64,000 nt of DNA from Candidatus Poribacteria bacterium (GTDB lineage: Bacteria; Poribacteria; WGA-4E; WGA-3G), in NCBI GenBank assembly GCA_965197475.1, contig CBDANF010000002.1, positions 416,001 to 480,000 on the forward strand. The letters run 5' to 3'. Positions 21 through 64,000 of the stretch are shown here, one piece after another. Below the pieces are notes generated by a model. The model saw nothing but the letters and a program-made list of their open reading frames with translations. It had not been told where the DNA came from and did no database searches. Made by a program: the position numbers and the translations under genes. Position 1 is the stretch's first letter; every line of letters starts with the position of its first letter.

Positions 21-611
21 ATGGAAGAAAGAGAACATAATCAATCCAGAACGGAATTACCATCCGCGCAACAAACACTTCTAACTGCCGAAGCCTTATG
101 GAAACAGGCTGATGATGGTTATCGATATGAATTGGTGAAAGGAGTAATACGTAGAATGCCACCAGCTGGATTTGAACATGGGATAAGAACGGCTGAAATT
201 GGGAGTCTTCTTAACGTACACGTTAAAAAACATAAATTAGGCTATGTTTGTGGTGCTGAAACAGGATTTAAAATTTCTCAAAATCCAGATACCGTGCGCG
301 CGCCAGATGCAGCGTTTGTTTGCCAAGCCGCAATTGATGAACAAGGTATTCCTAAAGGTTATTGGGAAGGTGCGCCTGATTTTGCCGTTGAAGTCATCTC
401 CCTAAGCGATACTTATACTGAGGTAGCGGAAAAGGTAGATGAATGGTTAAATGCGGGTTGTGCAATGGTGTGGGTTGTGAATCCACGCCGCGAAACCGTA
501 GAAGTGTACCGGTCTCCTGAGGATATTACCGTTTTCCGTGGAAATGATATACTTGACGGTGGCGATGTTATTGAAGGGTTTCAATGTCAAGTTCAGGATC
601 TATTTGTGTAA
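21..611 (+). CDS. Uma2 family (PD-(D/E)xK-like) endonuclease
   Basis: YELVKG...PAGFEHG...RAPDAAFV...APDFAVEVIS...VWVVNP pattern typical of Uma2/DUF820. Confidence 0.9.
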   Translation: MEEREHNQSRTELPSAQQTLLTAEALWKQADDGYRYELVKGVIRRMPPAGFEHGIRTAEIGSLLNVHVKKHKLGYVCGAETGFKISQNPDTVRAPDAAFVCQAAIDEQGIPKGYWEGAPDFAVEVISLSDTYTEVAEKVDEWLNAGCAMVWVVNPRRETVEVYRSPEDITVFRGNDILDGGDVIEGFQCQVQDLFV

Positions 612-53133: not shown

Positions 53134-54381
53134 CTAAATTATGTTGTCTTTGTTAATATCAAGTTCAGATACGTCTATTTCGCCAGAGATGAGTTTGGGG
53201 AGGAGAAGGTCGCGGGTTTGGCGGAGGTTGGCGTTTTTTTCTAACAAATTGTTAAGTGATTTTCTCAGTGAGGTAATCAATTCCTCAAAACTTTTTCTTA
53301 CATCCTGTGTTGGAATAACTAATCCAAAATCGGTGATAACTCCCGCACTCGCGCTTTTACGAGTGGTGCCAGTGCTTGCTCCATCTACGTAATTTTGATA
53401 ACGGGCATCTAAAAGAGCGTAAAAGAGGTAATAGGGTGATAGGAACGTAGACCTTAATTTCAAACGGATTAGATAAGAGGCAAAAACAGCATTAATATCT
53501 TTTTCAATTATTGCTACTTTCCCAGGATCTGCCATACGAATCACGAGAATATCACCGACATCAAGTTGATATTTCGCATGTTTTTTTGCGTCAATTGGAC
53601 AAAAAGGCACTGCTCCCCAATCGATGTATGTAGTTTTATTGATATCTTTACCTCTAACGAACTTCGGTCCAACTTCATCTTCAGTAGCAGATTCGGTATA
53701 GCCGTATTGCGTCAAAACTAGATCTGCAAGCTGCTTAACTTCCCATCCCTGCGGTATCTGTCCCAATTTTGATTCTACCATCTGGACGTTCTCATGTTCC
53801 GGAAATCGGTAGTGGACGAACCATTCTCTATAGAGGGTTTGTGCCATGTCTTCAAGGATTTTGATGCGGCGGGTGTTGTTTTCAATAAGGTCGTCGTTGG
53901 TGCTGAGGATAGCGGCGATTTTGCGTTGGGTTGGGAGTGGTGGAACACAAACCTTAAGTTTTGCGAATGAAGTCTTATTGACTATAGGGGTAGCAACACC
54001 ACTCGCAACATTCTGGAGAATATCTGTTTGTGTTCTGAGAAGGTAATAAACAAAATATGGGTCGTACTTTTGTTGATTTGCCACAACGCTGTTGATTTGC
54101 TGATTTGTTACGCTGGGAACAGATGTCATGCAAATCTTACCGATGCTTGCAATACAAACTACACAAACAGCATTGCGTGGCAGCAAACGTTTTTTATTAT
54201 ATTCATATCCTTTCTGTGATAAAAATCGTTCGGTATGAACAATGCGAGAATCTATTTCTATATCAGTTGGGGTGATAAAGGGATATTCATTGCCGTAATA
54301 CTCTGTTTTTTTTGTAGGTGGAGTAGAGCCTGTAATGATCTGTCCCAAGTCATTGATAGTTACGTTCTGCCACGTATTCAT
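53134..54381 (-). CDS. hsdS: Type I R-M specificity subunit S
   Basis: TGSTP, PPLPTQRKIAAIL..DDLIENN.RRI, IPQGWE, RDLLLPKLISGEI. Confidence 0.95.
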   Translation of the reverse strand: MNTWQNVTINDLGQIITGSTPPTKKTEYYGNEYPFITPTDIEIDSRIVHTERFLSQKGYEYNKKRLLPRNAVCVVCIASIGKICMTSVPSVTNQQINSVVANQQKYDPYFVYYLLRTQTDILQNVASGVATPIVNKTSFAKLKVCVPPLPTQRKIAAILSTNDDLIENNTRRIKILEDMAQTLYREWFVHYRFPEHENVQMVESKLGQIPQGWEVKQLADLVLTQYGYTESATEDEVGPKFVRGKDINKTTYIDWGAVPFCPIDAKKHAKYQLDVGDILVIRMADPGKVAIIEKDINAVFASYLIRLKLRSTFLSPYYLFYALLDARYQNYVDGASTGTTRKSASAGVITDFGLVIPTQDVRKSFEELITSLRKSLNNLLEKNANLRQTRDLLLPKLISGEIDVSELDINKDNII

Positions 54382-54441
54382 ACTGCGTTCCTAAATCAAA
54401 TTACAATTTCTTCTATACATTCTTCTATCTCAATCATAGTT

Positions 54442-55593
54442 TTAAGGTGTAGCGGGGGATGGATTACGAAGTCTAGCGACTGGAGCGAAGGTTGGAGATT
54501 CAACCATTTGTAGATTCTGTCCCAAAAAGAATTTCTTAAGATCCTCAGTGTATTCCGGCATTGGGTCTTGATCAACTATGTAAAACAATTCACGCCCAAC
54601 ACGCGAAAGGGCAACACCCGATATCCTTAATTCTGGCTTATTCTCTCGTTCTGGTAAGGGTGATAAAACCCAATGTTTTCCTTGATATTGGAATGGTAAA
54701 AGGACTGGGTTATCTTGACTTATTATGCACAAATTGTAGTCATACCGAGAATTGTAAGACGAAATAATCAGATCGTATTCGTTTAGTAAATTAAGTTGGC
54801 CATACCTTAAACCATATTTTTCAAGTGCATTAGTTCCAGGGTTGCCACCCAGAGAAGCAACTCTGGCATCAAGAATCATTTCGCTATTTGGAATTCCAAA
54901 GACCCCATAGACTACACATGCGGAACAGAATTTTTTGAACAAAGCGGCGATTTCTTGATCTAGCTCACTGAGGAGTTTTACAGCTTTTATTGAATACGAC
55001 CCTGGTTTCTCAATTTCACCAGCTAAGACGCGACCGAAACGACGTTGCATATCCTCACTACTTTTTTGACTCCCCTCTTTCTCAAAAATGTTGAACCAAT
55101 CATCGTCAATTGTTTTCTCTTCGTTAGTGTTCTCGCCTTGATTTTTTGGATCCGCAGCTTGTTCTTTATTCTGTTCACTGGTGTTTTCATCTGTTGCGTT
55201 GTCAGTTTTCGTTTTTTTAAGTATATCTGTAGCAAACCCCAATATTTTCTCAAGATTGTGCTGTTCCCGCAGTATTCTCTTCGCAAATGTATTTGATGCT
55301 CTCTGTGGAAATTCAGGATCAACCTTTAATTGCTGAATAATTTGGGCATTAATTGCTTCTGTAATTTTAATACGCGCTTCCGATTCTGACCTTTTCTCTG
55401 CAGATCTTCGTTCAAGAGCTCCAACAGGTATATCAATTAAAGCAGAACCTAACCTGTCCAAAGCCTTAAGCACGTTTCGCCTGATTGGAACAGGAATAGT
55501 TGAATCTAAAGCCAGATCGGTGACAGCATCAAGCGCAGTATTTGATGTGTCTTCGGTTGTTACGGGAAGATCTGGTTTTGTTTCATCAGACAT
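54442..55593 (-). CDS. DUF2806 domain protein
   Basis: REQHNLEKI..IDDDWF..F....SSEDMQ..FGRVLAGEIEKPGSYS. Confidence 0.8.
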   Translation of the reverse strand: MSDETKPDLPVTTEDTSNTALDAVTDLALDSTIPVPIRRNVLKALDRLGSALIDIPVGALERRSAEKRSESEARIKITEAINAQIIQQLKVDPEFPQRASNTFAKRILREQHNLEKILGFATDILKKTKTDNATDENTSEQNKEQAADPKNQGENTNEEKTIDDDWFNIFEKEGSQKSSEDMQRRFGRVLAGEIEKPGSYSIKAVKLLSELDQEIAALFKKFCSACVVYGVFGIPNSEMILDARVASLGGNPGTNALEKYGLRYGQLNLLNEYDLIISSYNSRYDYNLCIISQDNPVLLPFQYQGKHWVLSPLPERENKPELRISGVALSRVGRELFYIVDQDPMPEYTEDLKKFFLGQNLQMVESPTFAPVARLRNPSPATP

Positions 55594-55697
55594 AATTAAT
55601 CTTTCATTTTTTTATTACCAAAACGAATTGTGTTATTCATACTGTTATGTGTTTTCTATTCATTTTCAATCACAGATTTTGGATTATGGAGGATAGA

Positions 55698-56027
55698 TCA
55701 CGAAGTCGTAACGACTCGCAGGTGCCCGCCTTTTTCGTTTGAAGGCTTAATATGAATTTCAACGTCACGGTTCAACTGATTCAGGATTGTAAACAGTTTG
55801 TCCACGTTAAAATCGAAATCCCCGTTCTGTATTCGGGACACATCTGATGGATTGAGTCCAAAACGTTCCTCTGCTTTTGCTGGTGTGAGTTTTAGTTCTT
55901 CAAGTAAACGGTAGATTCTAATGACGAGATCCACTCTTAACTGTTCATGTTCAGCTTCCTCTTTAGAGAAACCGATGTCTAAAAACACATTGCCGGAACT
56001 CTTTGTAAATTTGACCTCTTCACTCAT
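55698..56027 (-). CDS. XRE/HigA-type antitoxin
   Basis: SSGNVFLDIGF..HTH..FNVDKL..L..L..DVEI. Confidence 0.85.
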   Translation of the reverse strand: MSEEVKFTKSSGNVFLDIGFSKEEAEHEQLRVDLVIRIYRLLEELKLTPAKAEERFGLNPSDVSRIQNGDFDFNVDKLFTILNQLNRDVEIHIKPSNEKGGHLRVVTTS

Positions 56028-56376
56028 TTTTTGCCTCCATTTCATGCGCTATTTTCAATCGTTGTTTAATCAAATCAATTTCCTTTTTAGGGGTGCGGAT
56101 ACCACGCGTGGATTTCTTTTGGAATGCGTGGAGCACATAGATATTCTCACCCAATTTGACAGTATAAACTGCGCGATAAGTATTCGTATCGTAACGAGCG
56201 GTAATTTCCAATACACCTGAACCCACTCCCCGCAACGGTTTGGCATTCTTGTCTTTAAGTCCGGATTGAGCAGCCTGTAATGCTCTACCTACCTTTGTTC
56301 TCGCAGCTTTGGGAAAACTCCGTACTCGCACATGCGAATCGCCAACCCATATTACATCTTTCATTACTTCATTCAT
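56020..56376 (-). CDS. RelE/HigB (Gp49-like) toxin
   Basis: KPLRGVGSGVLEI..TYRAVY..IYVLHAFQKKS. Confidence 0.9.
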   Translation of the reverse strand: MNEVMKDVIWVGDSHVRVRSFPKAARTKVGRALQAAQSGLKDKNAKPLRGVGSGVLEITARYDTNTYRAVYTVKLGENIYVLHAFQKKSTRGIRTPKKEIDLIKQRLKIAHEMEAKNE

Positions 56377-56394
56377 AATTTAACGCATTCAATA

Positions 56395-57960
56395 TTATAC
56401 CCTATTTTCTAATATCTTCGCAACATTCTCTGCAATGCGTTCTTCCAATTGGTGTGCCTCTGCGTTTAAAATTTCTAATTCCTCATTCAGTTCTGTGAAC
56501 CGTGGCATAAAGTCAAAATCCTCTGTTTCTTGTGTTGCGACACCGACATAACGTCCAGGGTTTAAACTCCATCCTTGCGCTTCAATTTCTTCTACTGTAG
56601 CAACTTTGCATAGACCGGGGACATCCGTATATTTTCCATCAGGAAATTTGTTTTTGAGGAGTTCCGCGCTGTTGTGTCTATTTTCAGGTGTTTCGTTTCG
56701 GTAAAGGCGCGCTATGTTTGCCAAGAATTCGAGTTGCATGGGTGTGAACTCACGGTGTGCACGACTTACTTGTTGATAGAGATGACGCGCATCAATGAAT
56801 AGGACTGTCCCGTGTCTGTCGGTATTCTGTTTGGATTTGTCGAAAAACCAGAGGGTACATGGCAGTGTTACAGTGTAGAAGAAATTTGATGCGATGCTTA
56901 TCATAACATCAACAGCACGAGATTCAATAATCTGCTTACGAATTTCTAATTCCGAAGCGCGCGCATCTGCAGCGGAGTTTGCCATCACAAAACCTGCCTT
57001 TCCGGTATCGTTCAGCGAGCTAAGAAACAACTGTATCCAAAGATAGTTCGCGTTATCTACGCGAGGCATTCCGAACGGGAATCGTGGGTCATCTTTTATC
57101 CGTTCCATATCTACTTTGTCAACATTAAAGGGCGGATTCGCCATCACAAAATCAAATTCGCCTAAAGACTTATGCGGATCTTTATAGTAGCTATTGGCTT
57201 GCTTGATGTCACCTTCATGTCCATGCACTGCAAGGTTCATCTTGCATAGTTTGATAGTCTCAGTTTTCCGTTCAACGCCGTAAATGCTGATACGTCTTTG
57301 GTTTTCGTTTTGTTGATGATTCTGTATGAATTCTTCGCTTTGGACAAACATACCGCCGGAACCGCAAGCTGGATCAAGAATCCGTCCGTGAAAAGGTTGG
57401 AGTATTTCAACGATGAGTTTAACAAGTGAAGTTGGGGTGAAGAACTCACCTCCGCGTTGCCCTTCACTCATAGCAAAATTGCCAAGAAAGTATTCGTAGA
57501 CCTTACCGAAGGCATCGCCTTCAATGTCCATCGAAATTTGTTCCATAATGCGTAGGAGTTCAATCAGCGTGCTCTTTTCAAGGCGATTGTAGTTTCTCGG
57601 CAAAACCCCATCAACCGGCTTATTTTCCGCTTCAATTGCTTTCATGGCGTTGTTGATAGCTTGTCCAATGTTATCGCTTTCTGGCAAATTTAGAAGATAG
57701 TTAAATCGCGACTTTTCCGGTAGATAGAATGCCCCATGTGCTTGGAATTGTGTTTTTTCATCAGTTCGGACCCGCGTACCAGACGGCATTTCTGATTTGA
57801 GTTCTTGTTGCACTTGTGTGAATTTATAGTCTGCATATTTTAAAAAAATAAGTCCTAAGACTGGCGTAGAGTATTCCGAAGCATTAAGATCTGAATTGGC
57901 CCTCAATTCATCTGCAGCACTCCAAAGTGTTCTTTCTATTTGAGTTAAGTTGGCATTCAT
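56395..57960 (-). CDS. hsdM: Type I R-M methyltransferase subunit M (m6A)
   Basis: [31 protein letters not shown]. Confidence 0.96.
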
Positions 57961-58039: not shown

Positions 58040-61000
58040 TTAGAAGAAGGAACGACCAAGTGAATTTCCGCTGCCAAATGCGTTATACGGCACACCTGCA
58101 GGTAAAGTATGGAGTCCCCATGTGTCAGTAGTCGCGTCAAAACCGACCCCCATAGAAACTGCTGGTTCACCTATCAAGTTAACCTGAAATGTAAAATCTT
58201 GTCGGACGTTGTCAAACGGTGGATCGCGTTTGATTCCGACTCGACTCCAGGAGATACGGAGGTTCCAATCGTGCAAATTGCGGTTAATGCTGACACGTTG
58301 TGAGTAAAATTGCCCTTCAATTGGATAGTAGATGAGGCTAAAGTCAAACTCAAGATCCTTGTTGAAACGGTATCGCCCATTAGCAGTCATGGAGCGCGAA
58401 GCTCGTATAGAGGTGTGTCGGTTGCTAAAGGAATTACCGAGACTGACATACCATTTTTGCCGTGTATATCTAATATTGGTGCGCACACCAACCATTTTGA
58501 ATTGTTTTCCATCATCGGGATGAGGATTTGGGTCATGAGTAAGGCGAACCGTCATATTTAGATTGCGGCTTGGTAATGGAACGATGGTGAAGTCGCTTTC
58601 AATTGGCTCGTATTTGCGCCTATATAACGACTCAAATTCTGTAAAATCAGCGGTAAGGCGGGTATCAAAATAGAAGATACGGTGTGCAGATTGACTGCGT
58701 CTGGTTTTAATTTCTATATTCGTATTGAAATTATATGTTAGCCTTTTGCGTTCATAGAAATAGGTACTGGGACCAAACGGGTAAAGACTGTTTTCCTCAT
58801 CAATAGGCGGTTGAAAATCAAAAGTAAGAGAGGATTGCAATTCATGGCGCAATTTTCGGACACCGGGTATAAAACTGGCGTTGTAGATACGGAATAGGGT
58901 ATTGGTAACTTGTGATCTGATACTGTAAACCCCACGTATTATGTTTTTATTTTTGTCTTGGTCTTTAGCGTGCCAGATAGCGTTTGTGTTCAGACGGGCA
59001 CTTATTTTTATCTCGCGCAAAGGGGTAATAAAAAGGTTTGCTTGCTTGCGCAGGTCAAACCCTAAGTCAATTGTCTGAAGAAAAACGTCATTTTCTTCAC
59101 CGTGTTTGCCGCGATAGGTTTGTCTAAAGAAGTTGCCAAATTCAATATCCATATCAAAACTGGTATCTTCAAGTGTTGGGAAAGCGAGAAGGGAGAGAAT
59201 AGGTATGTCGGTTTTGAGTTTTTCCGAGACAAGAACCATCCCATCGTTAATCGTTTCAAATACTGGAAGCCTGCTAAACCGCATCCGTGAAAAATTCACG
59301 GTCAATTGCGGTAATTTTTGGAGTGCGGTGGTGCCTTGTCCAGAGAAATCATGGATGTGTCGAACTTCGAGCCTGCCTGTGAAGTCACCGATGGTTTCTC
59401 GTGAATACCTGAGGTTCCCGTTTTCATCAACGTCCTTTTCACTTGCGGCGGAGAAGGCTGTGCCGTAGGTGATTATCCCAAAAGAATTGAGAGAAGATTC
59501 ATTTTGGATCTCCAAATCATCTTTATAGTTGACAGCACGCCACGCGGTCCGTCCAACGAAACTAAGTGGACGGCGCCCTGCTTGTCGGCTATCCCAGGGC
59601 GTATAGAAGGATTGTCTATGTCCCCACCGCATATTCCAACGTCTACCAATTCGGGATGCGCTCTGTCTGCTAAAGGAGTACTCGTCCGCCCCGTAGAGAT
59701 AAAAATCTCCGTAATAACTTCGCTTCTTATCTACTTTGATGAGTCTAAACGATTTTTTTGTATTAATTACTCGGCTATATTCATCAGCATAAAGACTTTG
59801 TGCTTCTGATGCCACTTGTCTTGGGTCTTCCCACCGTCCACGAAAACCGTATTTTCTATAAACTTCAAACTTTTCTTCCTCTTCAGCACTTTCTTGCTCA
59901 GTGGTTGTTGCGTCTTCGGGTGTCGCTGGTGGTGTGGACGTTTCGCTTTCAGCATCATCGGTAACAACAGGGGGCGAGGTGCTATCACCACCATTAGGTT
60001 TCTTAGTTTCATCGGAAGTGGTTGTGTTTTCCTCTTTAGGTGGTGTAGTTAAAACCTCAGCTTCAAAAGTTTCCCATTCGGCTTCAAACTGCTCGGCGAG
60101 TTCTTCAAACGTGGGTGTTTCCTCCTTTTTGATTAATTGAAAGATATAAAGACCTTCAGGTGAAAAAACAGGACTACGTTGGGTAATGTCTCCAGGTTTT
60201 TCCAAACGTCGGACAGAATATTGCCATCCGGTGTCCATCTCATTAAGGGGCAATCCGTTGCCATCATTAATTTCGGATAATTTTGCTTCAGTGAATTCCG
60301 AGGCAAGTTTTTCAAATGTTTCACCAGCAAGCGCGCGTTCGTGTATATTATTAGCGGTTTCACGAACGCTCTGCTGTGTTTCAGTACTTGCGGTGATAGC
60401 GATATCAATGCGGAGCAATTTAATTTCGCGTTCACCGTAGATGTTAAGCACACGCTCCGCTTTGAGGATATGAAAAGCGGATTCGGTTTTTAAGACACTG
60501 CTAATTTCACCTTCCTTAAGTGTGAACGCTGCTTCTTCTAAGACCGGCTCAAGTATTGGATTGCCGTCTTTGTCTTTCTCGCCTCGTGCAAGGAATCCCA
60601 TATCACCACCATCGTAACGTGTATCTGAATGGTCAGATACACTCTGGGCGAGTTGTGAAAAGTCAGCGGCATCTTCATTAAGTTGTTTGAGGATTTTTTC
60701 CGCTTCTTCTTTTGCACGGATAGCATCTTCATCAGAGATCTGATACTCCAGGAAAAGTTTTCTTAGCCAATATCGGTCATAGTCACCTTCAAGACGACCA
60801 TATATCTCTTTTGCTTTTTCTTCCAATTTTGTACGTTGGGCAGGGGTAGCGTTAGGCGGGATAGGAATATGGATCTCTCGGAACTGCGTATCACTAAATC
60901 GATATTTTCCTTCTAATCCGAAACCTTGTCCTCTTCGCGCGCTTCTGTCGTATAAAAGTGCACCATCGTAGCGTCTTTTGCGGGCTACAGGTAAGATGAT

Positions 61001-61858
61001 ACTGATGTTGGGACCTTGATAGCTATCTGTTCCGACTCTAACGATAATCTTTGCGACTTTGCCTTTCCGCAGGTCGCGCCGAATAGCAGGAAAATAGAAG
61101 AGCGGAACGCCACCGATCCGCAAGACGATATTTTTGGCAATCATCTCTTGGTTCATTTTGACAATCACTTCGGAAACGCTGAAATGGTAGTGCGGGTATT
61201 TCAACGAGCAGGTCGTTAGAGAACCACCGCGGATATAAGATTTTTTGTCCTCAATTTTAAAGATCTCGCTTCCTCCAAAATACCACGGATCGCTAAATGT
61301 GTACCCATTTCTGGCAATCCCCTTCTTGGTTTCGAGGTTGAAAACCAGTTCATCGGAATAGGTCTCATCATCACCGACTTTAAGATAAACGTTACCAGCA
61401 GCGCGCATCAGGTTATCATTGAAGTCTGCCCACACGTGGTCTGCTCGCAAAATGACATCTTCATATTTTATGAGAGCATTCCCATGAATTTGAACGAAGT
61501 TATCTTGTAAAATGACTTCGTCCCCATCGCCTATTACCGTGTCTGCTTCAGGAGTCATCTTTTCAGGATTTAAGGCTTCTTTAGCAGCTGTGACAGTCTG
61601 ATTCGTATCTTGAATAGCCTGTGTATCGGCTTTTTCTGGATCGTCTGGGGAAGGAGATTGTGAGGCTTGCGCATTCACTGACTGTAACGGTAAGAACAGA
61701 CAGGTGAAAACTACGACAGCAAACAATAAGGCACATAAAAGTCCGGTAATGTGATGTGTATTCTCCATTGATGTGCCACGCATTGACAGTTGATGCTGCA
61801 ACGTTAATATAGGTTGTATCATTTTATTAATTGACAGGATATCTTTGTTCTTTAACAA
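58040..61858 (-). CDS. lptD: LPS-assembly protein LptD with internal parvulin (PPIase) insertion
   Basis: OstA-like N-domain, LTTC..PHY, VPLFYFP, RRGQGFGLEGKY; insert with FSQLAQSVSD..GGDMG..EAAFTLKEGEISSV; barrel-like C-terminus with RNLHDW. Confidence 0.8.
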   Translation of the reverse strand: MLKNKDILSINKMIQPILTLQHQLSMRGTSMENTHHITGLLCALLFAVVVFTCLFLPLQSVNAQASQSPSPDDPEKADTQAIQDTNQTVTAAKEALNPEKMTPEADTVIGDGDEVILQDNFVQIHGNALIKYEDVILRADHVWADFNDNLMRAAGNVYLKVGDDETYSDELVFNLETKKGIARNGYTFSDPWYFGGSEIFKIEDKKSYIRGGSLTTCSLKYPHYHFSVSEVIVKMNQEMIAKNIVLRIGGVPLFYFPAIRRDLRKGKVAKIIVRVGTDSYQGPNISIILPVARKRRYDGALLYDRSARRGQGFGLEGKYRFSDTQFREIHIPIPPNATPAQRTKLEEKAKEIYGRLEGDYDRYWLRKLFLEYQISDEDAIRAKEEAEKILKQLNEDAADFSQLAQSVSDHSDTRYDGGDMGFLARGEKDKDGNPILEPVLEEAAFTLKEGEISSVLKTESAFHILKAERVLNIYGEREIKLLRIDIAITASTETQQSVRETANNIHERALAGETFEKLASEFTEAKLSEINDGNGLPLNEMDTGWQYSVRRLEKPGDITQRSPVFSPEGLYIFQLIKKEETPTFEELAEQFEAEWETFEAEVLTTPPKEENTTTSDETKKPNGGDSTSPPVVTDDAESETSTPPATPEDATTTEQESAEEEEKFEVYRKYGFRGRWEDPRQVASEAQSLYADEYSRVINTKKSFRLIKVDKKRSYYGDFYLYGADEYSFSRQSASRIGRRWNMRWGHRQSFYTPWDSRQAGRRPLSFVGRTAWRAVNYKDDLEIQNESSLNSFGIITYGTAFSAASEKDVDENGNLRYSRETIGDFTGRLEVRHIHDFSGQGTTALQKLPQLTVNFSRMRFSRLPVFETINDGMVLVSEKLKTDIPILSLLAFPTLEDTSFDMDIEFGNFFRQTYRGKHGEENDVFLQTIDLGFDLRKQANLFITPLREIKISARLNTNAIWHAKDQDKNKNIIRGVYSIRSQVTNTLFRIYNASFIPGVRKLRHELQSSLTFDFQPPIDEENSLYPFGPSTYFYERKRLTYNFNTNIEIKTRRSQSAHRIFYFDTRLTADFTEFESLYRRKYEPIESDFTIVPLPSRNLNMTVRLTHDPNPHPDDGKQFKMVGVRTNIRYTRQKWYVSLGNSFSNRHTSIRASRSMTANGRYRFNKDLEFDFSLIYYPIEGQFYSQRVSINRNLHDWNLRISWSRVGIKRDPPFDNVRQDFTFQVNLIGEPAVSMGVGFDATTDTWGLHTLPAGVPYNAFGSGNSLGRSFF

Positions 61859-61878: not shown

Positions 61879-63210
61879 TCAGTTGTCCTTGCCATCAGAG
61901 GTTGGTACTGCATCGGGTTTGATTTTGATATAAGCATTTTCAAGGAGCGTATCAGTATAAGCGGTCCACTCTTTTTCAAAAAGTTGTTGACGTAGGATAC
62001 CGATAATCTGCAGTTTTTCTTGTTGTGTCAACTCAGGCGTTTTGCGTTCATCAACTTTGTAGATATAGAGACCGACTTCGGTTTCAAACGGTTCACTATG
62101 TTTTCCAACCTCAAGCGGTTCGACAACTTTCCGAGTTTTTGGATTTAACTCAGTTAGGATATGGACCCCAAGGTCCCCACCTTTTTCACGGGTTTCCGCA
62201 TCATCGGAATGTTCTTTAGCAATGGCGATAAATTTTTCCCCAGCTTCTAATTTTTTGAAAATTCCCTCGGCTTGTTCACGGGCAGTCTGTAAAGCCTTTT
62301 CACTAAATAGAAATGGAACAGTTAAATGTCGAAACGAAATCTTTTCATCAGTTCGGGTTTCAACCATGAAAACATGGATGCCATCAGCCGCTTCAATAGG
62401 TTCACTAACTTCCCCTGCTTTGAGTTTGGCAAGGACAGTTAGGAACACATCAGGATATGAAAGTATCTCTGCGGGAGTGGTTTCAATGAGAGAGCCGGCT
62501 TGGGTGTTTGGATTATGTTTTGAAGCGATGCGGCGAGCAACAACTTCAAATTGTGTTTTATCTGATCGGATCTCTTCAAGTGCCTGATTCACCGCATCAG
62601 ATGCTGCCTTTCTGTCTGCTTCGGTCGGTTTAAAAGCAATGAATACATGACGCAAATGGACTCTATCAGCTTTAGTTGGAAGTTGATCGCGGTTTTCTTC
62701 AAAAAATTTTTGGACATCGCTATCGCGTACCTGTAACCGTGGTAAAATTCTTCCCATAACCAATTTTTCCGTCATCATGTTCCGCTGGATTTGTTCACGA
62801 AAAGCAACAATAGTCATTCCATCGCGGTTAAGCAATTTTTTGAATTCTTCGTCTGATGGAATTTGGTATTGCGTCTTAAACTTTTGAATTTGTTCCTGAA
62901 CCTCAACGTCGGCGACTTGAATTTTTAGGGTTAAAGCTGCTTCTAACAGAAGCATTTGGCGAATGAGTCGATCTAAAAGTTCACCTCGCTGCTTTTCAGC
63001 CTCTTTAAGTGCTTCACTTTCGCTGAATCGGTGACTCTGCTGAAGTTCAAAGGCGTGCTGCTTAACCACTATGTCAAGTCGTCGTTTTGTTATGATATCA
63101 TCGTTGACATAAGCGATAATTTTATCAAATATCTTCGCAATACCAGGAGTCACGCTGCTGAAGATGAGAAGTAGAATCAGAAGCACACTCATTATTATTT
63201 TGGGGTTCAT
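61879..63210 (-). CDS. surA: SurA-like chaperone/peptidyl-prolyl isomerase
   Basis: DKIIAYVNDDIIT N-domain, two rotamase domains (HSDD..GGDLG). Confidence 0.85.
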   Translation of the reverse strand: MNPKIIMSVLLILLLIFSSVTPGIAKIFDKIIAYVNDDIITKRRLDIVVKQHAFELQQSHRFSESEALKEAEKQRGELLDRLIRQMLLLEAALTLKIQVADVEVQEQIQKFKTQYQIPSDEEFKKLLNRDGMTIVAFREQIQRNMMTEKLVMGRILPRLQVRDSDVQKFFEENRDQLPTKADRVHLRHVFIAFKPTEADRKAASDAVNQALEEIRSDKTQFEVVARRIASKHNPNTQAGSLIETTPAEILSYPDVFLTVLAKLKAGEVSEPIEAADGIHVFMVETRTDEKISFRHLTVPFLFSEKALQTAREQAEGIFKKLEAGEKFIAIAKEHSDDAETREKGGDLGVHILTELNPKTRKVVEPLEVGKHSEPFETEVGLYIYKVDERKTPELTQQEKLQIIGILRQQLFEKEWTAYTDTLLENAYIKIKPDAVPTSDGKDN

Positions 63211-63499: not shown

Positions 63500-64000
63500 T
63501 TATTTCTCTGGTGATGTTTGTTCGGAGGGTTTTTCAGATTCTTTTTCGGGGACTTCGTCCTCCGGAATGCGGTCAATGAAGGTTTTAACTTGTGCCTGTT
63601 CTCGGAGCTGAGAAACCCACGCTTTCATCAGAGCGTCCCGTCGTTCCCGTTCAACCTTTCTAATGATGTTTTTACGGACATCCTCTTCACTAAAAGGTCT
63701 CTGATATGCGTCTCTGGCCTCTTTCTTAACGAACATCATGTAGTATTTTTCACCCTGCACCTCAATTTCAATGACTGATGGGTGGAGTGTGTCAATTTCT
63801 GCGCTGAAGGCAGCTTCTATGAAGGGTTCTGTTCCTGGTGGATAAGTGTTTTTGCTAATGAAGTCGGTGTCACCGGGTGAGGCAGGGTTTGCTCCAGGTC
63901 CCACCAATTCGCCTCTATCAGACAGTTCTTGTGCTGCAACGGTGATATCTTTTCCGGCTTTTATTTCAGCAAAAACTTCATCGGCGCGTTCTTTGTCCAT
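63500..64000 (-). CDS. C-terminal part of a PrsA/PpiC-type foldase (5' end outside window)
   Basis: AQELS..GDTDF..FIEAAFS..WVSQLREQAQV. Confidence 0.7.
   Translation of the reverse strand: MDKERADEVFAEIKAGKDITVAAQELSDRGELVGPGANPASPGDTDFISKNTYPPGTEPFIEAAFSAEIDTLHPSVIEIEVQGEKYYMMFVKKEARDAYQRPFSEEDVRKNIIRKVERERRDALMKAWVSQLREQAQVKTFIDRIPEDEVPEKESEKPSEQTSPEK

Follow-up and report, generated by a model that had tools for sequence, protein, structure and literature searches.

The window is a 64,000-nucleotide stretch of contig CBDANF010000002.1 from a Candidatus Poribacteria bacterium. Open reading frame analysis of positions 58040 to 61858 on the reverse strand gave a single ORF, which is read as an LptD orthologue carrying a parvulin insert (Table 1). 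A public protein (P0002) is 100% identical to the ORF product and begins at M13; translation probably starts at M13 or at M31. Residues 31-63 are likely a Sec signal peptide.

Table 1. Features of the lptD locus, with positions given in the window
Feature	Positions	Strand	Residues and remarks	Basis
Whole ORF, LptD orthologue with parvulin insert	58040..61858	-	1272 aa plus stop codon	open reading frame analysis
Putative Sec signal peptide	61670..61768	-	31-63; hydrophobic core, ..VNA/QAS	read by eye
LptD N-terminal beta-jellyroll (beta-taco)	61073..61531	-	about 110-262; TTC..PHYHF, GGVPLFYFP	profile A3
Barrel strands b1-b4	60896..61072	-	263-321	A3-E. coli, P0146/P0147 and LptD_2-to-E. coli alignments
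Outer parvulin, N-terminal piece (b1, a1)	60788..60895	-	322-357	AF2 strand 2-17, helix 24-42; VIA
Inner parvulin Pa	60434..60781	-	360-475; best Pfam Rotamase match	Pfam, AF2, VIA
Inner parvulin Pb	60116..60433	-	476-581; degenerate, GGD loop reads DGN	second Pfam stretch, AF2, VIA
Outer parvulin helix a2, extended	60035..60115	-	582-608	AF2 model, family alignment
Acidic, T/P/E-rich disordered linker	59873..60034	-	609-662	pLDDT <50, composition
Outer parvulin, C-terminal piece (b2, a4, b3, b4)	59714..59872	-	663-715	AF2, VIA, half-domain Rotamase
Rest of LptD barrel (b5 to C-terminus)	58043..59713	-	716-1272; ending ..GRSFF	hhalign, phmmer, sub-cut-off Pfam LptD_2
SurA-like chaperone gene, immediately upstream of lptD	61879..63210	-	443 aa	Pfam SurA_N + Rotamase
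Rotamase_2 ORF, 3' part	63500..64000	-	324 aa; extends past the window	ORF list, Pfam

The product of the SurA-like gene matches the Pfam families SurA_N_3 (3.5e-17), SurA_N (9.2e-11) and Rotamase (1.1e-32). Two 324-aa Rotamase_2 ORFs are located upstream of this gene, and mfd is found further upstream. The order proposed in the sequence-only reading, with lptD following surA and another PPIase gene, is thus the one present. A parvulin-bearing ORF of 351-470 aa also lies directly upstream of lptD in four other genomes (G001, G003, G008 and G017). For the LptE family (PF04390) no match was obtained in this genome, which is 92.7% complete; the family was found in 89 of 176 Poribacteria genomes, including 7 of 39 from the same genus. 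A role of the insert as a replacement for LptE was rejected, since LptE occurs in these 89 genomes together with the same fused LptD.

The insert corresponds to residues 322-715 (394 aa) and coincides with positions 59715-60895, where about 390 residues of parvulin had been proposed to interrupt an LptD barrel. The segment RRGQGFGLEGKYRF is located at residues 308-321 of the ORF translation, just ahead of the insert. All of the quoted motifs were recovered within the insert: FREIHIPI at residues 326-333, FSQLAQSV at 400-407, AFHILK at 461-466, FEKLASEF at 515-522, GLYIFQL at 569-575 and EYSRVINT..SFRLIKV at 693-709. With an LptD_2 profile made from five insert-less proteins, the N-terminal match stops at position 60893, 2 bases from the start of the insert at 60895.

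LptD is the LPS translocon of the outer membrane, and a 26-stranded barrel is expected of it. When the N-terminal family profile (A3) was compared with PDB sequences, LptD chain 7omm_A was matched with E = 2.1e-5, and LptA chains were matched weakly (E 0.06-0.6). The same profile aligns by hmmsearch to residues 65-269 of E. coli K-12 LptD (b0054), an alignment that extends only to b3 (E. coli residues 267-269). In a seven-sequence search, A3 matched 5/5 LptD_2 proteins bearing the N-terminal domain (E 1e-26 to 1e-35) and gave no match to P0150, a 397-aa barrel-only protein. The single-protein match to Pfam OstA_2 reached only 14 bits. Strand names follow PMC12644819 and PMC6164715, which place P231 and P246 of E. 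coli LptD in b1 and b2, respectively. The b2 proline is invariant in the Poribacteria family (P290 here, column P186 of A3, equivalent to E. coli P246), and the b1 proline is replaced by Arg or Lys.

The region beyond the insert was compared with known LptD barrels using profile methods. An alignment of the family barrel profile (A5) with that of the LptD_2 proteins (A6) by hhalign gave a probability of 99.8% and E = 5e-30 over 416 columns. Matches to proteins carrying PF19838 and PF04453 were obtained with phmmer at E values from 7e-9 to 7e-4. The Pfam LptD_2 model (PF19838) scores 19.2-20.7 bits on the protein against a cut-off of 22.5, and a genome scan with this model gave 23.2 bits for the ORF "with its neighbours in the frame". 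Among 18 barrels of the family, three give an LptD_2 match with E no higher than 0.1. The Pfam profile PF04453 gave no match anywhere in the genome. A search of PDB sequences with A5 returned no LptD, the sole match being irrelevant (E = 0.25), and phmmer with the whole protein against the PDB returned parvulins only. The profile from the five insert-less proteins matched three segments, all in this ORF and none elsewhere, and the ORF is the sole match to PF19838 or to this profile in the 5.7-Mb genome. LpxC (295 bits) and an LptA-like ORF are also present. The comparisons identify the ORF as the LptD of this organism, with a predicted barrel of a divergent LptD_2 type; the resumption of barrel strands after the insert, claimed earlier, is borne out by the hhalign result.

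The position of the insert was assigned by alignment to E. coli LptD. Strands b1-b3 of the family align to b1-b3 of the E. coli protein; the equivalence of b4 comes from the P0146 and P0147 alignments together with the alignment of LptD_2 proteins to E. coli LptD. The b24-b25 connection of E. coli LptD is described as a periplasmic turn in PMC12644819, and by parity the b4-b5 turn is then periplasmic too. The insert is accordingly placed, from alignment and strand parity, in the predicted periplasmic turn between b4 and b5, in agreement with the proposed insertion site. An AF2 model of the whole protein (residues 100-1272, shallow alignment of 33 rows) gave a pLDDT of 42.5 and a pTM of 0.34 and is unusable for topology beyond a low-confidence strand count; where the module lies with respect to barrel and jellyroll is deduced from this parity argument.

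Pfam PF00639 (Rotamase) matches the ORF in two stretches with E = 4.6e-28 and 98.5 bits, a signal well beyond chance. Structure prediction of the insert by AF2 gave a confident model with a pLDDT of 83.8, above 90 outside the linker and below 50 within it. A total of 93 PDB chains align to the model at VIA Z >=8, and the best 50 of those 93 are all parvulin-type PPIases or chaperones. Single-domain parvulins align over about 86-104 residues across insert-model residues 3..400; 4g2p_A aligns with 104 of 108 residues (Z 11.3, 2.7 A) and 1zk6 with 86 of 91 residues (1.8 A). For the tandem PPIase 8hm3_B, the alignment covers 206 residues within model residues 45..266 (Z 16.9). Since VIA outputs no more than the two end residues of an alignment, the assignment of a split domain depends on the aligned length relative to the span and on half-domain Pfam matches. 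The C-terminal piece of the outer parvulin matches Rotamase HMM positions 33-97 only, in 5/5 linker-less relatives (35-57 bits), and the corresponding piece in the window scores 15.2 bits. The N-terminal piece gave a weak match to HMM positions 2-32 in 1/7 relatives.

In the model, the insert is composed of three parvulin folds, with a split outer domain enclosing a tandem of Pa and Pb. Strand b1 and helix a1 of the outer parvulin are predicted to open the insert and the a2-b4 portion to close it, and Pa and Pb are contained in the a1-a2 loop. The earlier suggestion that the first parvulin both opens and closes the insert thus agrees with the AF2 model, the VIA spans and the half-domain matches. 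Two long strands appear at model residues 2-17 and 388-404. Barrel strand b4 would continue as b1 of the outer parvulin, and the last strand of that domain would lead directly back into b5. The overall architecture, an LptD with a three-parvulin module in the b4-b5 turn, is very probably correct.

The acidic linker that had been noticed in the insert was located in the outer parvulin, where it replaces the GGD loop. Ten of the 19 sequences in the alignment have it, namely the window protein and all nine other members of its order, and it is absent from the nine sequences of other orders and of the other class. Identity within the linker is 1-15% among the aligned sequences.

Conservation was examined across the phylum, and a strong match to the protein was found in 174 of 176 Poribacteria genomes, many of them single-contig; the orthologues retain the insert. 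The parvulin insert at the T2 turn is common to all members, and a deep class has parvulin domains at a second turn as well. The parvulin domains match the barrel in degree of conservation; in other orders, for instance, their identity is 31-33% and that of the barrel 35%. Ten distant representatives, six rotamase-bearing and four shorter fragments, were 47-81% identical to Poribacteria genomes by blastp. These data bear on whether the architecture could be an artefact, either a chimeric assembly, a fused gene call or a protein other than LptD. Relatives are named in public sources only as "peptidylprolyl isomerase" or "hypothetical protein", Pfam LptD_2 is below its cut-off on the protein, and four of the 15 distant draft genomes examined have the gene in pieces (on separate contigs in G002 and G004, in different frames in G007 and G009), all of which would favor an artefact. 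The gene is a single ORF in the other 11 of these 15 genomes, however, and the breadth of the match across the phylum argues against an assembly chimera. The GC content of 0.43-0.48 has no break at the insert, and the ORF matches LptD_2 and a PDB LptD and is the only LptD candidate in an LpxC-bearing genome. An artefact is extremely improbable and is effectively refuted by the conservation, the hhalign alignment and the genome search with the LptD_2 profile.

The catalytic residues of the parvulin units were compared in 19 sequences. The first catalytic histidine of Pa is present in 0/19 sequences and the second in 11/19; the GGDMG loop of Pa is retained. For Pb the first histidine is found in 1/19 and the second in 4/19, and for the outer unit, read by eye from the alignment, in 1/19 and 7/19, respectively. 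The canonical histidine pair, as in SurA P1/P2, is complete in no parvulin unit of the 19 sequences, which makes binding or chaperoning a likelier role than catalysis; the module is likely noncatalytic. A module that serves other clients in trans (outer-membrane proteins, lipoproteins, LptA/LptE) as an active PPIase or chaperone on the inner side of the outer membrane would be consistent with the well-formed parvulin folds of the AF2 model, with the loop and second histidine of Pa, and with the likeness of the Pa-Pb tandem to 8hm3_B. Such a role is nevertheless improbable given the incomplete histidine pairs, the scarcity and immobility of an enzyme present as one copy per LptD, and the free SurA and PPIase paralogues encoded next door. 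A built-in chaperone, as the sequence-only reading had proposed, is plausible. The module would hang in the periplasm three strands from the junction of the jellyroll and the lateral gate and would act in cis, mainly as a noncatalytic or weakly catalytic polypeptide-binding unit. It would keep the unfolded barrel segment of roughly 560 residues soluble and assist its delivery to BAM, in parallel with the free SurA of the adjacent gene. This cis mechanism is proposed tentatively, at somewhat short of an even chance. Counting against it, the insert has no SurA N/C core and free SurA-type proteins are already encoded in the genome.

The module may instead act after assembly, built permanently into the translocon in a structural or regulatory capacity, bracing the jellyroll and lateral-gate region in the manner of LptY and offsetting lost disulfides. 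Disulfides between the jellyroll and b24-b25 are an enterobacterial feature and are not universal among LptDs. Through the long modelled strands the outer parvulin would form one piece with the b4/b5 hairpin and so be held rigidly, the catalytic loops are degenerate with one replaced by a linker, and the module is conserved to the same degree as the barrel. C217 is the only Cys of the mature window protein. The Cys of the LHCWE motif of LptD_2 proteins, which aligns weakly to E. coli C724/C725, is replaced by Asp in the Poribacteria family except in the deep class. In E. coli the jellyroll is anchored through Cys residues to the b24-b25 turn and is stabilized by the lipoprotein LptY, as stated in PMC12644819. 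A structural role leaves unexplained why parvulins specifically were acquired, and at two different turns, and contact between module and jellyroll is hypothetical. Complex prediction for the jellyroll (A3 1-160) and insert (A4 8-400) scored 0.00 in both runs, without controls, and is uninformative either way. The structural role fits the data about as well as a built-in chaperone, and taken as the explanation it is possible but doubtful. A combined reading, in which the module is joined rigidly to the b4/b5 hairpin next to the lateral gate, chaperones its own barrel during folding by BAM and afterwards remains in the periplasm to brace the protein or assist the gate, in place of disulfides and LptY-type lipoproteins, would make the Poribacterial LptD a self-contained assembly and translocon unit; we consider this rather unlikely.

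LptD, an essential protein and an antibiotic target, ranks with the outer-membrane proteins that are hardest to fold, and its need for SurA is a textbook example. A phylum-wide LptD with a SurA-like parvulin tandem in a periplasmic turn is a ready-made natural experiment, bearing on the contribution of periplasmic parvulins to the biogenesis of outer-membrane proteins and the LPS translocon and on stabilization of the jellyroll and gate without disulfides. If the self-contained unit were real, no outer-membrane protein before it would be known to bring its own periplasmic folding factor. The doubly nested topology (two parvulins within a parvulin within a barrel) would be rare, and a parvulin-within-parvulin continuous with barrel strands would be an unusual case for protein topology and domain insertion. 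The annotation is also corrected, in that proteins named PPIase or hypothetical are assigned as LptD; under their current names Poribacteria could seem to be without LptD. No description of an LptD-parvulin fusion was found in a search of titles and abstract openings (subscription journals and InterPro architectures were outside its scope), and no publication on a nested parvulin insertion in Poribacteria LptD was found in the searchable literature. Among public sequencing runs, no RNA dataset gave a match, and three contig-level matches all belong to one study.

In both the Poribacterial protein and E. coli LptD, a beta-jellyroll at the N-terminus precedes a large barrel, and the junction region (TxC..., PxFY.P and SGFL-type motifs) aligns. 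The E. coli lptD gene is also linked to surA, in the opposite order to that of the window. Between the b4 and b5 motifs E. coli LptD has only the short stretch LSQAGAG, whereas the Poribacterial protein has the 394-aa module. The Cys pair for interdomain disulfides is present in E. coli LptD and absent here, and, unlike that of characterized LptD, the Poribacterial barrel has diverged too far to be recognized by PF04453 or by PDB sequence profiles. The closest insert-less relatives are the LptD_2 (PF19838) proteins P0143, P0146, P0147, P0145 and P0151, which have no rotamase domain and retain the C-terminal LHCWE Cys. The A3 match reaches b4 in P0146 and P0147 (profile positions 215-216), b3 in P0143 and only b1 in P0145 and P0151. 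That these proteins belong to other phyla is a lead only.

In PrsA and PpiD a parvulin is likewise an inserted domain, with entry and exit via adjacent termini, and the Foldseek/VIA matches of the insert include 8zht_A, 6vj4 and 5tvl_D. These proteins differ in being chaperones, either soluble or anchored in a membrane, that have only one parvulin, and to our knowledge none of this type is inserted in a beta-barrel or in another parvulin. SurA (1m5y) and 8hm3/8hm4 are periplasmic and have two tandem parvulins inside a host domain. The modelled arrangement of Pa relative to Pb resembles the two-parvulin tandem of the SurA-like PPIase 8hm4, and SurA P1 (2pv1_A) aligns to the insert over 97 residues with a VIA Z of 12.9. 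The dependence of LptD on SurA is established (title of reference 31 in PMC12644819), and the chaperone activity of SurA is said to reside in its N/C core domain (abstract of PMC2556385). The Pfam families SurA_N, SurA_N_2 and SurA_N_3 gave no match in the LptD ORF and are represented in the adjoining gene. The likeness of the insert is to the P1-P2 tandem only. The host of the tandem in SurA is the N/C chaperone core; here the host is a predicted parvulin and, around it, an outer-membrane barrel.

The single ORF on the reverse strand encodes the LptD of this organism, an orthologue that carries a conserved and folded module of three nested parvulins. All of the motifs quoted in the sequence-only reading are found in this ORF at the positions stated. 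Pfam detects a PPIC-type rotamase in two stretches (E = 4.6e-28; best match, residues 375-468) and LptD_2 in the C-terminal part (residues 896-1026; 19.2 bits, below the cut-off of 22.5). The GC content across the ORF is even.

Coordinates of the LptD-parvulin ORF, the segments of its insert and the associated genes (window positions unless stated otherwise)
Feature	Coordinates	Strand	Remarks
LptD-parvulin ORF, 1272 aa	58040..61858	-	one single ORF
Insert, 394 aa	59715-60895; residues 322-715	-	
Long strand and helix	residues 317-357		AF2
Complete parvulin set Pa	residues 362-473		AF2
Complete parvulin set Pb	residues 476-579		AF2
Long helix, followed by the linker	residues 584-604		AF2
Acidic T/P/E-rich disordered linker, 54 aa	59873-60034; residues 609-662	-	
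Strand, helix, long strand	residues 667-719		AF2
SurA-like gene	61879..63210	-	SurA_N, SurA_N_3, Rotamase; directly upstream of lptD
Two paralogous 324-aa Rotamase_2 ORFs, then mfd (TRCF)	L009 500-6194 = G000:C2 479500-485194		past the window edge, upstream of the SurA-like gene
Type I restriction-modification locus	53134-57960	-	
hsdM	56395-57960	-	N6_Mtase, HsdM_N
Gp49-like toxin / HTH_37 antitoxin-type pair	56020-56376 and 55698-56045	-	between hsdM and hsdS
DUF2806 ORF	54442-55593	-	between hsdM and hsdS
hsdS	53134-54381	-	Methylase_S
LptA-like ORF, 330 aa	G000:C3:2236622-2237038	-	two LptD_N/OstA-type repeats (33.3 and 17.3 bits)

The part after the insert (residues 710-1272) was searched exhaustively with phmmer against 1.84 billion representatives, and only 30 proteins were returned. 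The long rotamase-bearing hits checked (P0122, P0123, P0124, P0127, P0130 and P0144) and four shorter fragments share 47-81% identity with genomes of the phylum. The next hits are insert-less and have clear PF19838, PF04453 or LptD_N domains (P0143, P0145, P0146, P0147, P0150 and P0151). Eighteen diverse barrels of the family were combined in a profile and compared with five insert-less LptD_2 proteins using hhalign, and the resulting probability of 99.8% (E = 5e-30, 416 columns) bears out the earlier assignment of the C-terminal part to an LptD barrel. The N-terminal profile (residues 105-330, 17 sequences) matches an LptD of known structure, 7omm_A (E = 2.1e-5), and also LptA chains, though weakly; in a 7-sequence search it matches the five LptD_2 proteins with an N-terminal domain at 1e-26 to 1e-35.

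The genome of the window (5.7 Mb, 92.7% complete) gave no match to PF04453, and its sole match to PF19838 is this ORF. The five-protein LptD_2 profile likewise detects this ORF only, in three pieces, the first of which stops at window position 60893; the insert starts 2 bases away, at 60895. LpxC is present (295 bits). The LptA-like ORF is likely an LptA-type periplasmic bridge protein; the LptA chains among the PDB hits (117-159 residues) are about half as long. The C-terminus of the LptD-parvulin protein is ..GRSFF, and BAM substrates usually have an aromatic residue at this end.

A word-indexed protein search gave 370 relatives, of which the best 120 are 1229-1382 aa in length and 59-100% identical, with rotamase domains in all; many are encoded on multi-megabase contigs and, where public names are given, they appear as 'peptidylprolyl isomerase' or 'hypothetical protein' of Candidatus Poribacteria. 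The ORF was matched at E<=1e-5 in 175 of the 176 phylum genomes (strongly, E<=1e-85, in 174; weakly in G032), including 133/133 of good quality, and no match was found in G123. The matches listed from the order of the window cover the full query or both halves in one open frame of ~1230-1450 aa, except in G145, where it is cut at 640 aa. Fifteen genomes were sampled from those families and classes of the phylum that are most distant. Jellyroll, parvulins and barrel lie in a single ORF of 1120-1488 aa in 11 of them; the gene is broken by contig ends in two (G002 and G004) and is in two frames in two more (G007 and G009, 64-73% complete). The insert is therefore kept in the orthologues, the comparison proposed earlier for recognizing a chimera, and an assembly artefact was rejected on the strong matches to the fused ORF across the phylum and on the multi-megabase contigs that encode many of the relatives. 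With the linker left out (identity 1-15%), Pa, Pb and the barrel are 33, 31 and 35% identical to other orders and 31, 27 and 26% identical to the other class. The parvulin units are thus about as conserved as the barrel, and the module is therefore under selection.

The insert with its immediate flanks (residues 316-725) was modeled by AF2 from a 19-row alignment that covered the phylum, giving a pLDDT of 83.8 and a pTM of 0.67, with pLDDT <50 in the linker only. The best PDB hits obtained using Foldseek are multi-parvulin chaperones (8hm4_B, 4.8e-12; PpiD 8zht_A; SurA 1m5y, 1e-6; PrsA). In VIA-align, the tandem PPIase 8hm3_B/8hm4_B aligns over 206-208 residues on model positions 45..267 (Z 16-17). 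Isolated parvulins of ~91-115 residues align over 86-104 residues, with spans from model positions 3-8 to 396-400 (SurA P2 4g2p_A, 104 of 108 residues, 2.7 A, Z 11.3; PrsA 1zk6, 86 of 91 residues, 1.8 A; Pin1 8w11_B, 100 residues, 2.8 A). Coverage of a 390-residue span by a domain of ~100 residues is possible only if the two end segments make up that domain. At the C-terminal end of the insert, 76-77 residues match positions 33-97 only of the Rotamase HMM in five of five linker-less relatives (35-57 bits); the same piece scores 15.2 bits in the window and 18.3 bits in the relative L036. The first 44 residues match positions 2-32 weakly in one of seven sequences (L029, 14.1 bits). From these alignments and half-domain matches, the outer parvulin is interrupted between a1 and a2, with Pa and Pb enclosed in the gap; that the first parvulin encloses the others was already supposed in the sequence-only reading.

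The first and last strands of the outer parvulin are 16-17 residues long in the insert model and continue into barrel strands b4 and b5, which suggests a rigid stalk and not a flexible tether. Several single parvulins align ~97 residues over positions 46..264 of model mae605c895219, which is not one contiguous unit; VIA-align reports the first and last aligned residue only, and this span could come from the aligner itself or point to strands swapped between Pa and Pb. A plain tandem is favored because of the collinear match to 8hm3/8hm4.

The position of the insert was mapped by hmmsearch of the family N-terminal profile against E. coli K-12 LptD, which aligned three segments: ..AKIIVRVG with ..SGFLIP(231)NA (b1), ISIILP(290)VA with FEFYLP(246)YYW (b2), and DGALLYDRSARRG with MDATITPHYMHRRG (b3). 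The family motif GFGLEGKYRF was aligned with IMWENEFRYL (b4) via the LptD_2 proteins, whose profile gives the same strand register against E. coli LptD. In the available text of PMC6164715 and PMC12644819, P231 and P246 of E. coli LptD are on b1 and b2. The motif that precedes the insert is therefore b4, and the b4-b5 connection is periplasmic by parity. By this homology the insert would lie in the periplasmic b4-b5 turn, three strands from the jellyroll/lateral-gate junction, in agreement with the periplasmic turn proposed earlier. The first AF2 run on the whole protein gave a pLDDT of 42.5.

The linker varies from ~40 to ~130 aa between genera. In the 19-row alignment it is present only in the order of the window, where it takes the place of the ..S....GGDxGY.. 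loop in the outer parvulin; other classes keep this loop. A fourth rotamase stretch is found in the deepest class (genomes G001 and G003, stretches L024 and L025; representatives P0130 and P0144). Its insertion site is farther along the barrel, in 2 of 18 barrel pieces, after the strand aligned to E. coli ..SAEPQLDVNYY..; the window protein has only a helix of ~16 residues at this site (residues ~865-880). The two sites are tentatively placed six strands apart, in which case the second would also be periplasmic.

With the two Rotamase_2 ORFs upstream of the SurA-like gene, four parvulin-bearing genes stand in a row with lptD last, which confirms that the gene follows surA and another PPIase. 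In G001, G003, G008 and G017 as well, lptD is directly preceded upstream by an ORF of 351-470 aa that contains a parvulin and is presumed to be the SurA-like gene. The restriction-modification locus downstream is unrelated.

For the catalytic residues, Pa and Pb were aligned to P1 and P2 of E. coli SurA, in each of which the two histidines are present, and the outer unit was scored by eye. The first and second histidines are present in 0/19 and 11/19 sequences for Pa, 1/19 and 4/19 for Pb, and 1/19 and 7/19 for the outer unit; both together were found in none of the 19 for any unit. The module is probably, and not certainly, non-catalytic, since the histidine pair does not predict PPIase activity in every case.

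Once mature, the window protein contains a single cysteine, C217, which lies in the TTC motif at the position of E. coli C173. The cysteine of the C-terminal LHCWE motif in LptD_2 aligns weakly to E. coli C724/C725, and this position is Asp in the family except in the deepest class, which keeps C-terminal cysteines. In the available text of PMC12644819, disulfides join jellyroll and barrel in E. coli LptD, and C724/C725 are in the b24-b25 periplasmic turn. Disulfides of this type are therefore impossible in the window protein. LptE (PF04390) was not found in the genome of the window (92.7% complete). It is detected in 89 of the 176 phylum genomes and in 7 of the 39 other genomes of the same genus, with 32 giving no detection, and the insert as a replacement for LptE was rejected on these counts. 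The PF04390 scores fall toward this genus, in which LptE is probably too divergent for the model and not absent.

Cis polypeptide binding would be preferred as the function, followed by a post-assembly brace and then by activity in trans. As a polypeptide binder, the module would keep the long barrel segment soluble and aid its hand-over to BAM together with the neighboring SurA, which is the leading reading although still short of an even chance. The chaperone activity of SurA is attributed to its N/C core in the available text of PMC2556385; the insert has no such core, which counts against polypeptide binding in cis. A brace or regulator of the jellyroll/gate region, analogous to LptY, might make up for the lost disulfides and is somewhat unlikely. 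That the module serves other clients in trans, as a PPIase or chaperone, is quite improbable.

No description of a parvulin-bearing LptD was found in the literature searched, which covers few subscription journals and no InterPro architectures, and none of a parvulin nested in a parvulin, within the same range of journals. The six long rotamase-bearing barrel relatives checked among the representatives all map to this phylum, in a search that rests on barrel similarity and would not detect such a fusion elsewhere if its barrel had diverged further. In E. coli LptD the conserved b4 and b5 motifs are separated by LSQAGAG only, and in the family of the window protein by 394 residues.
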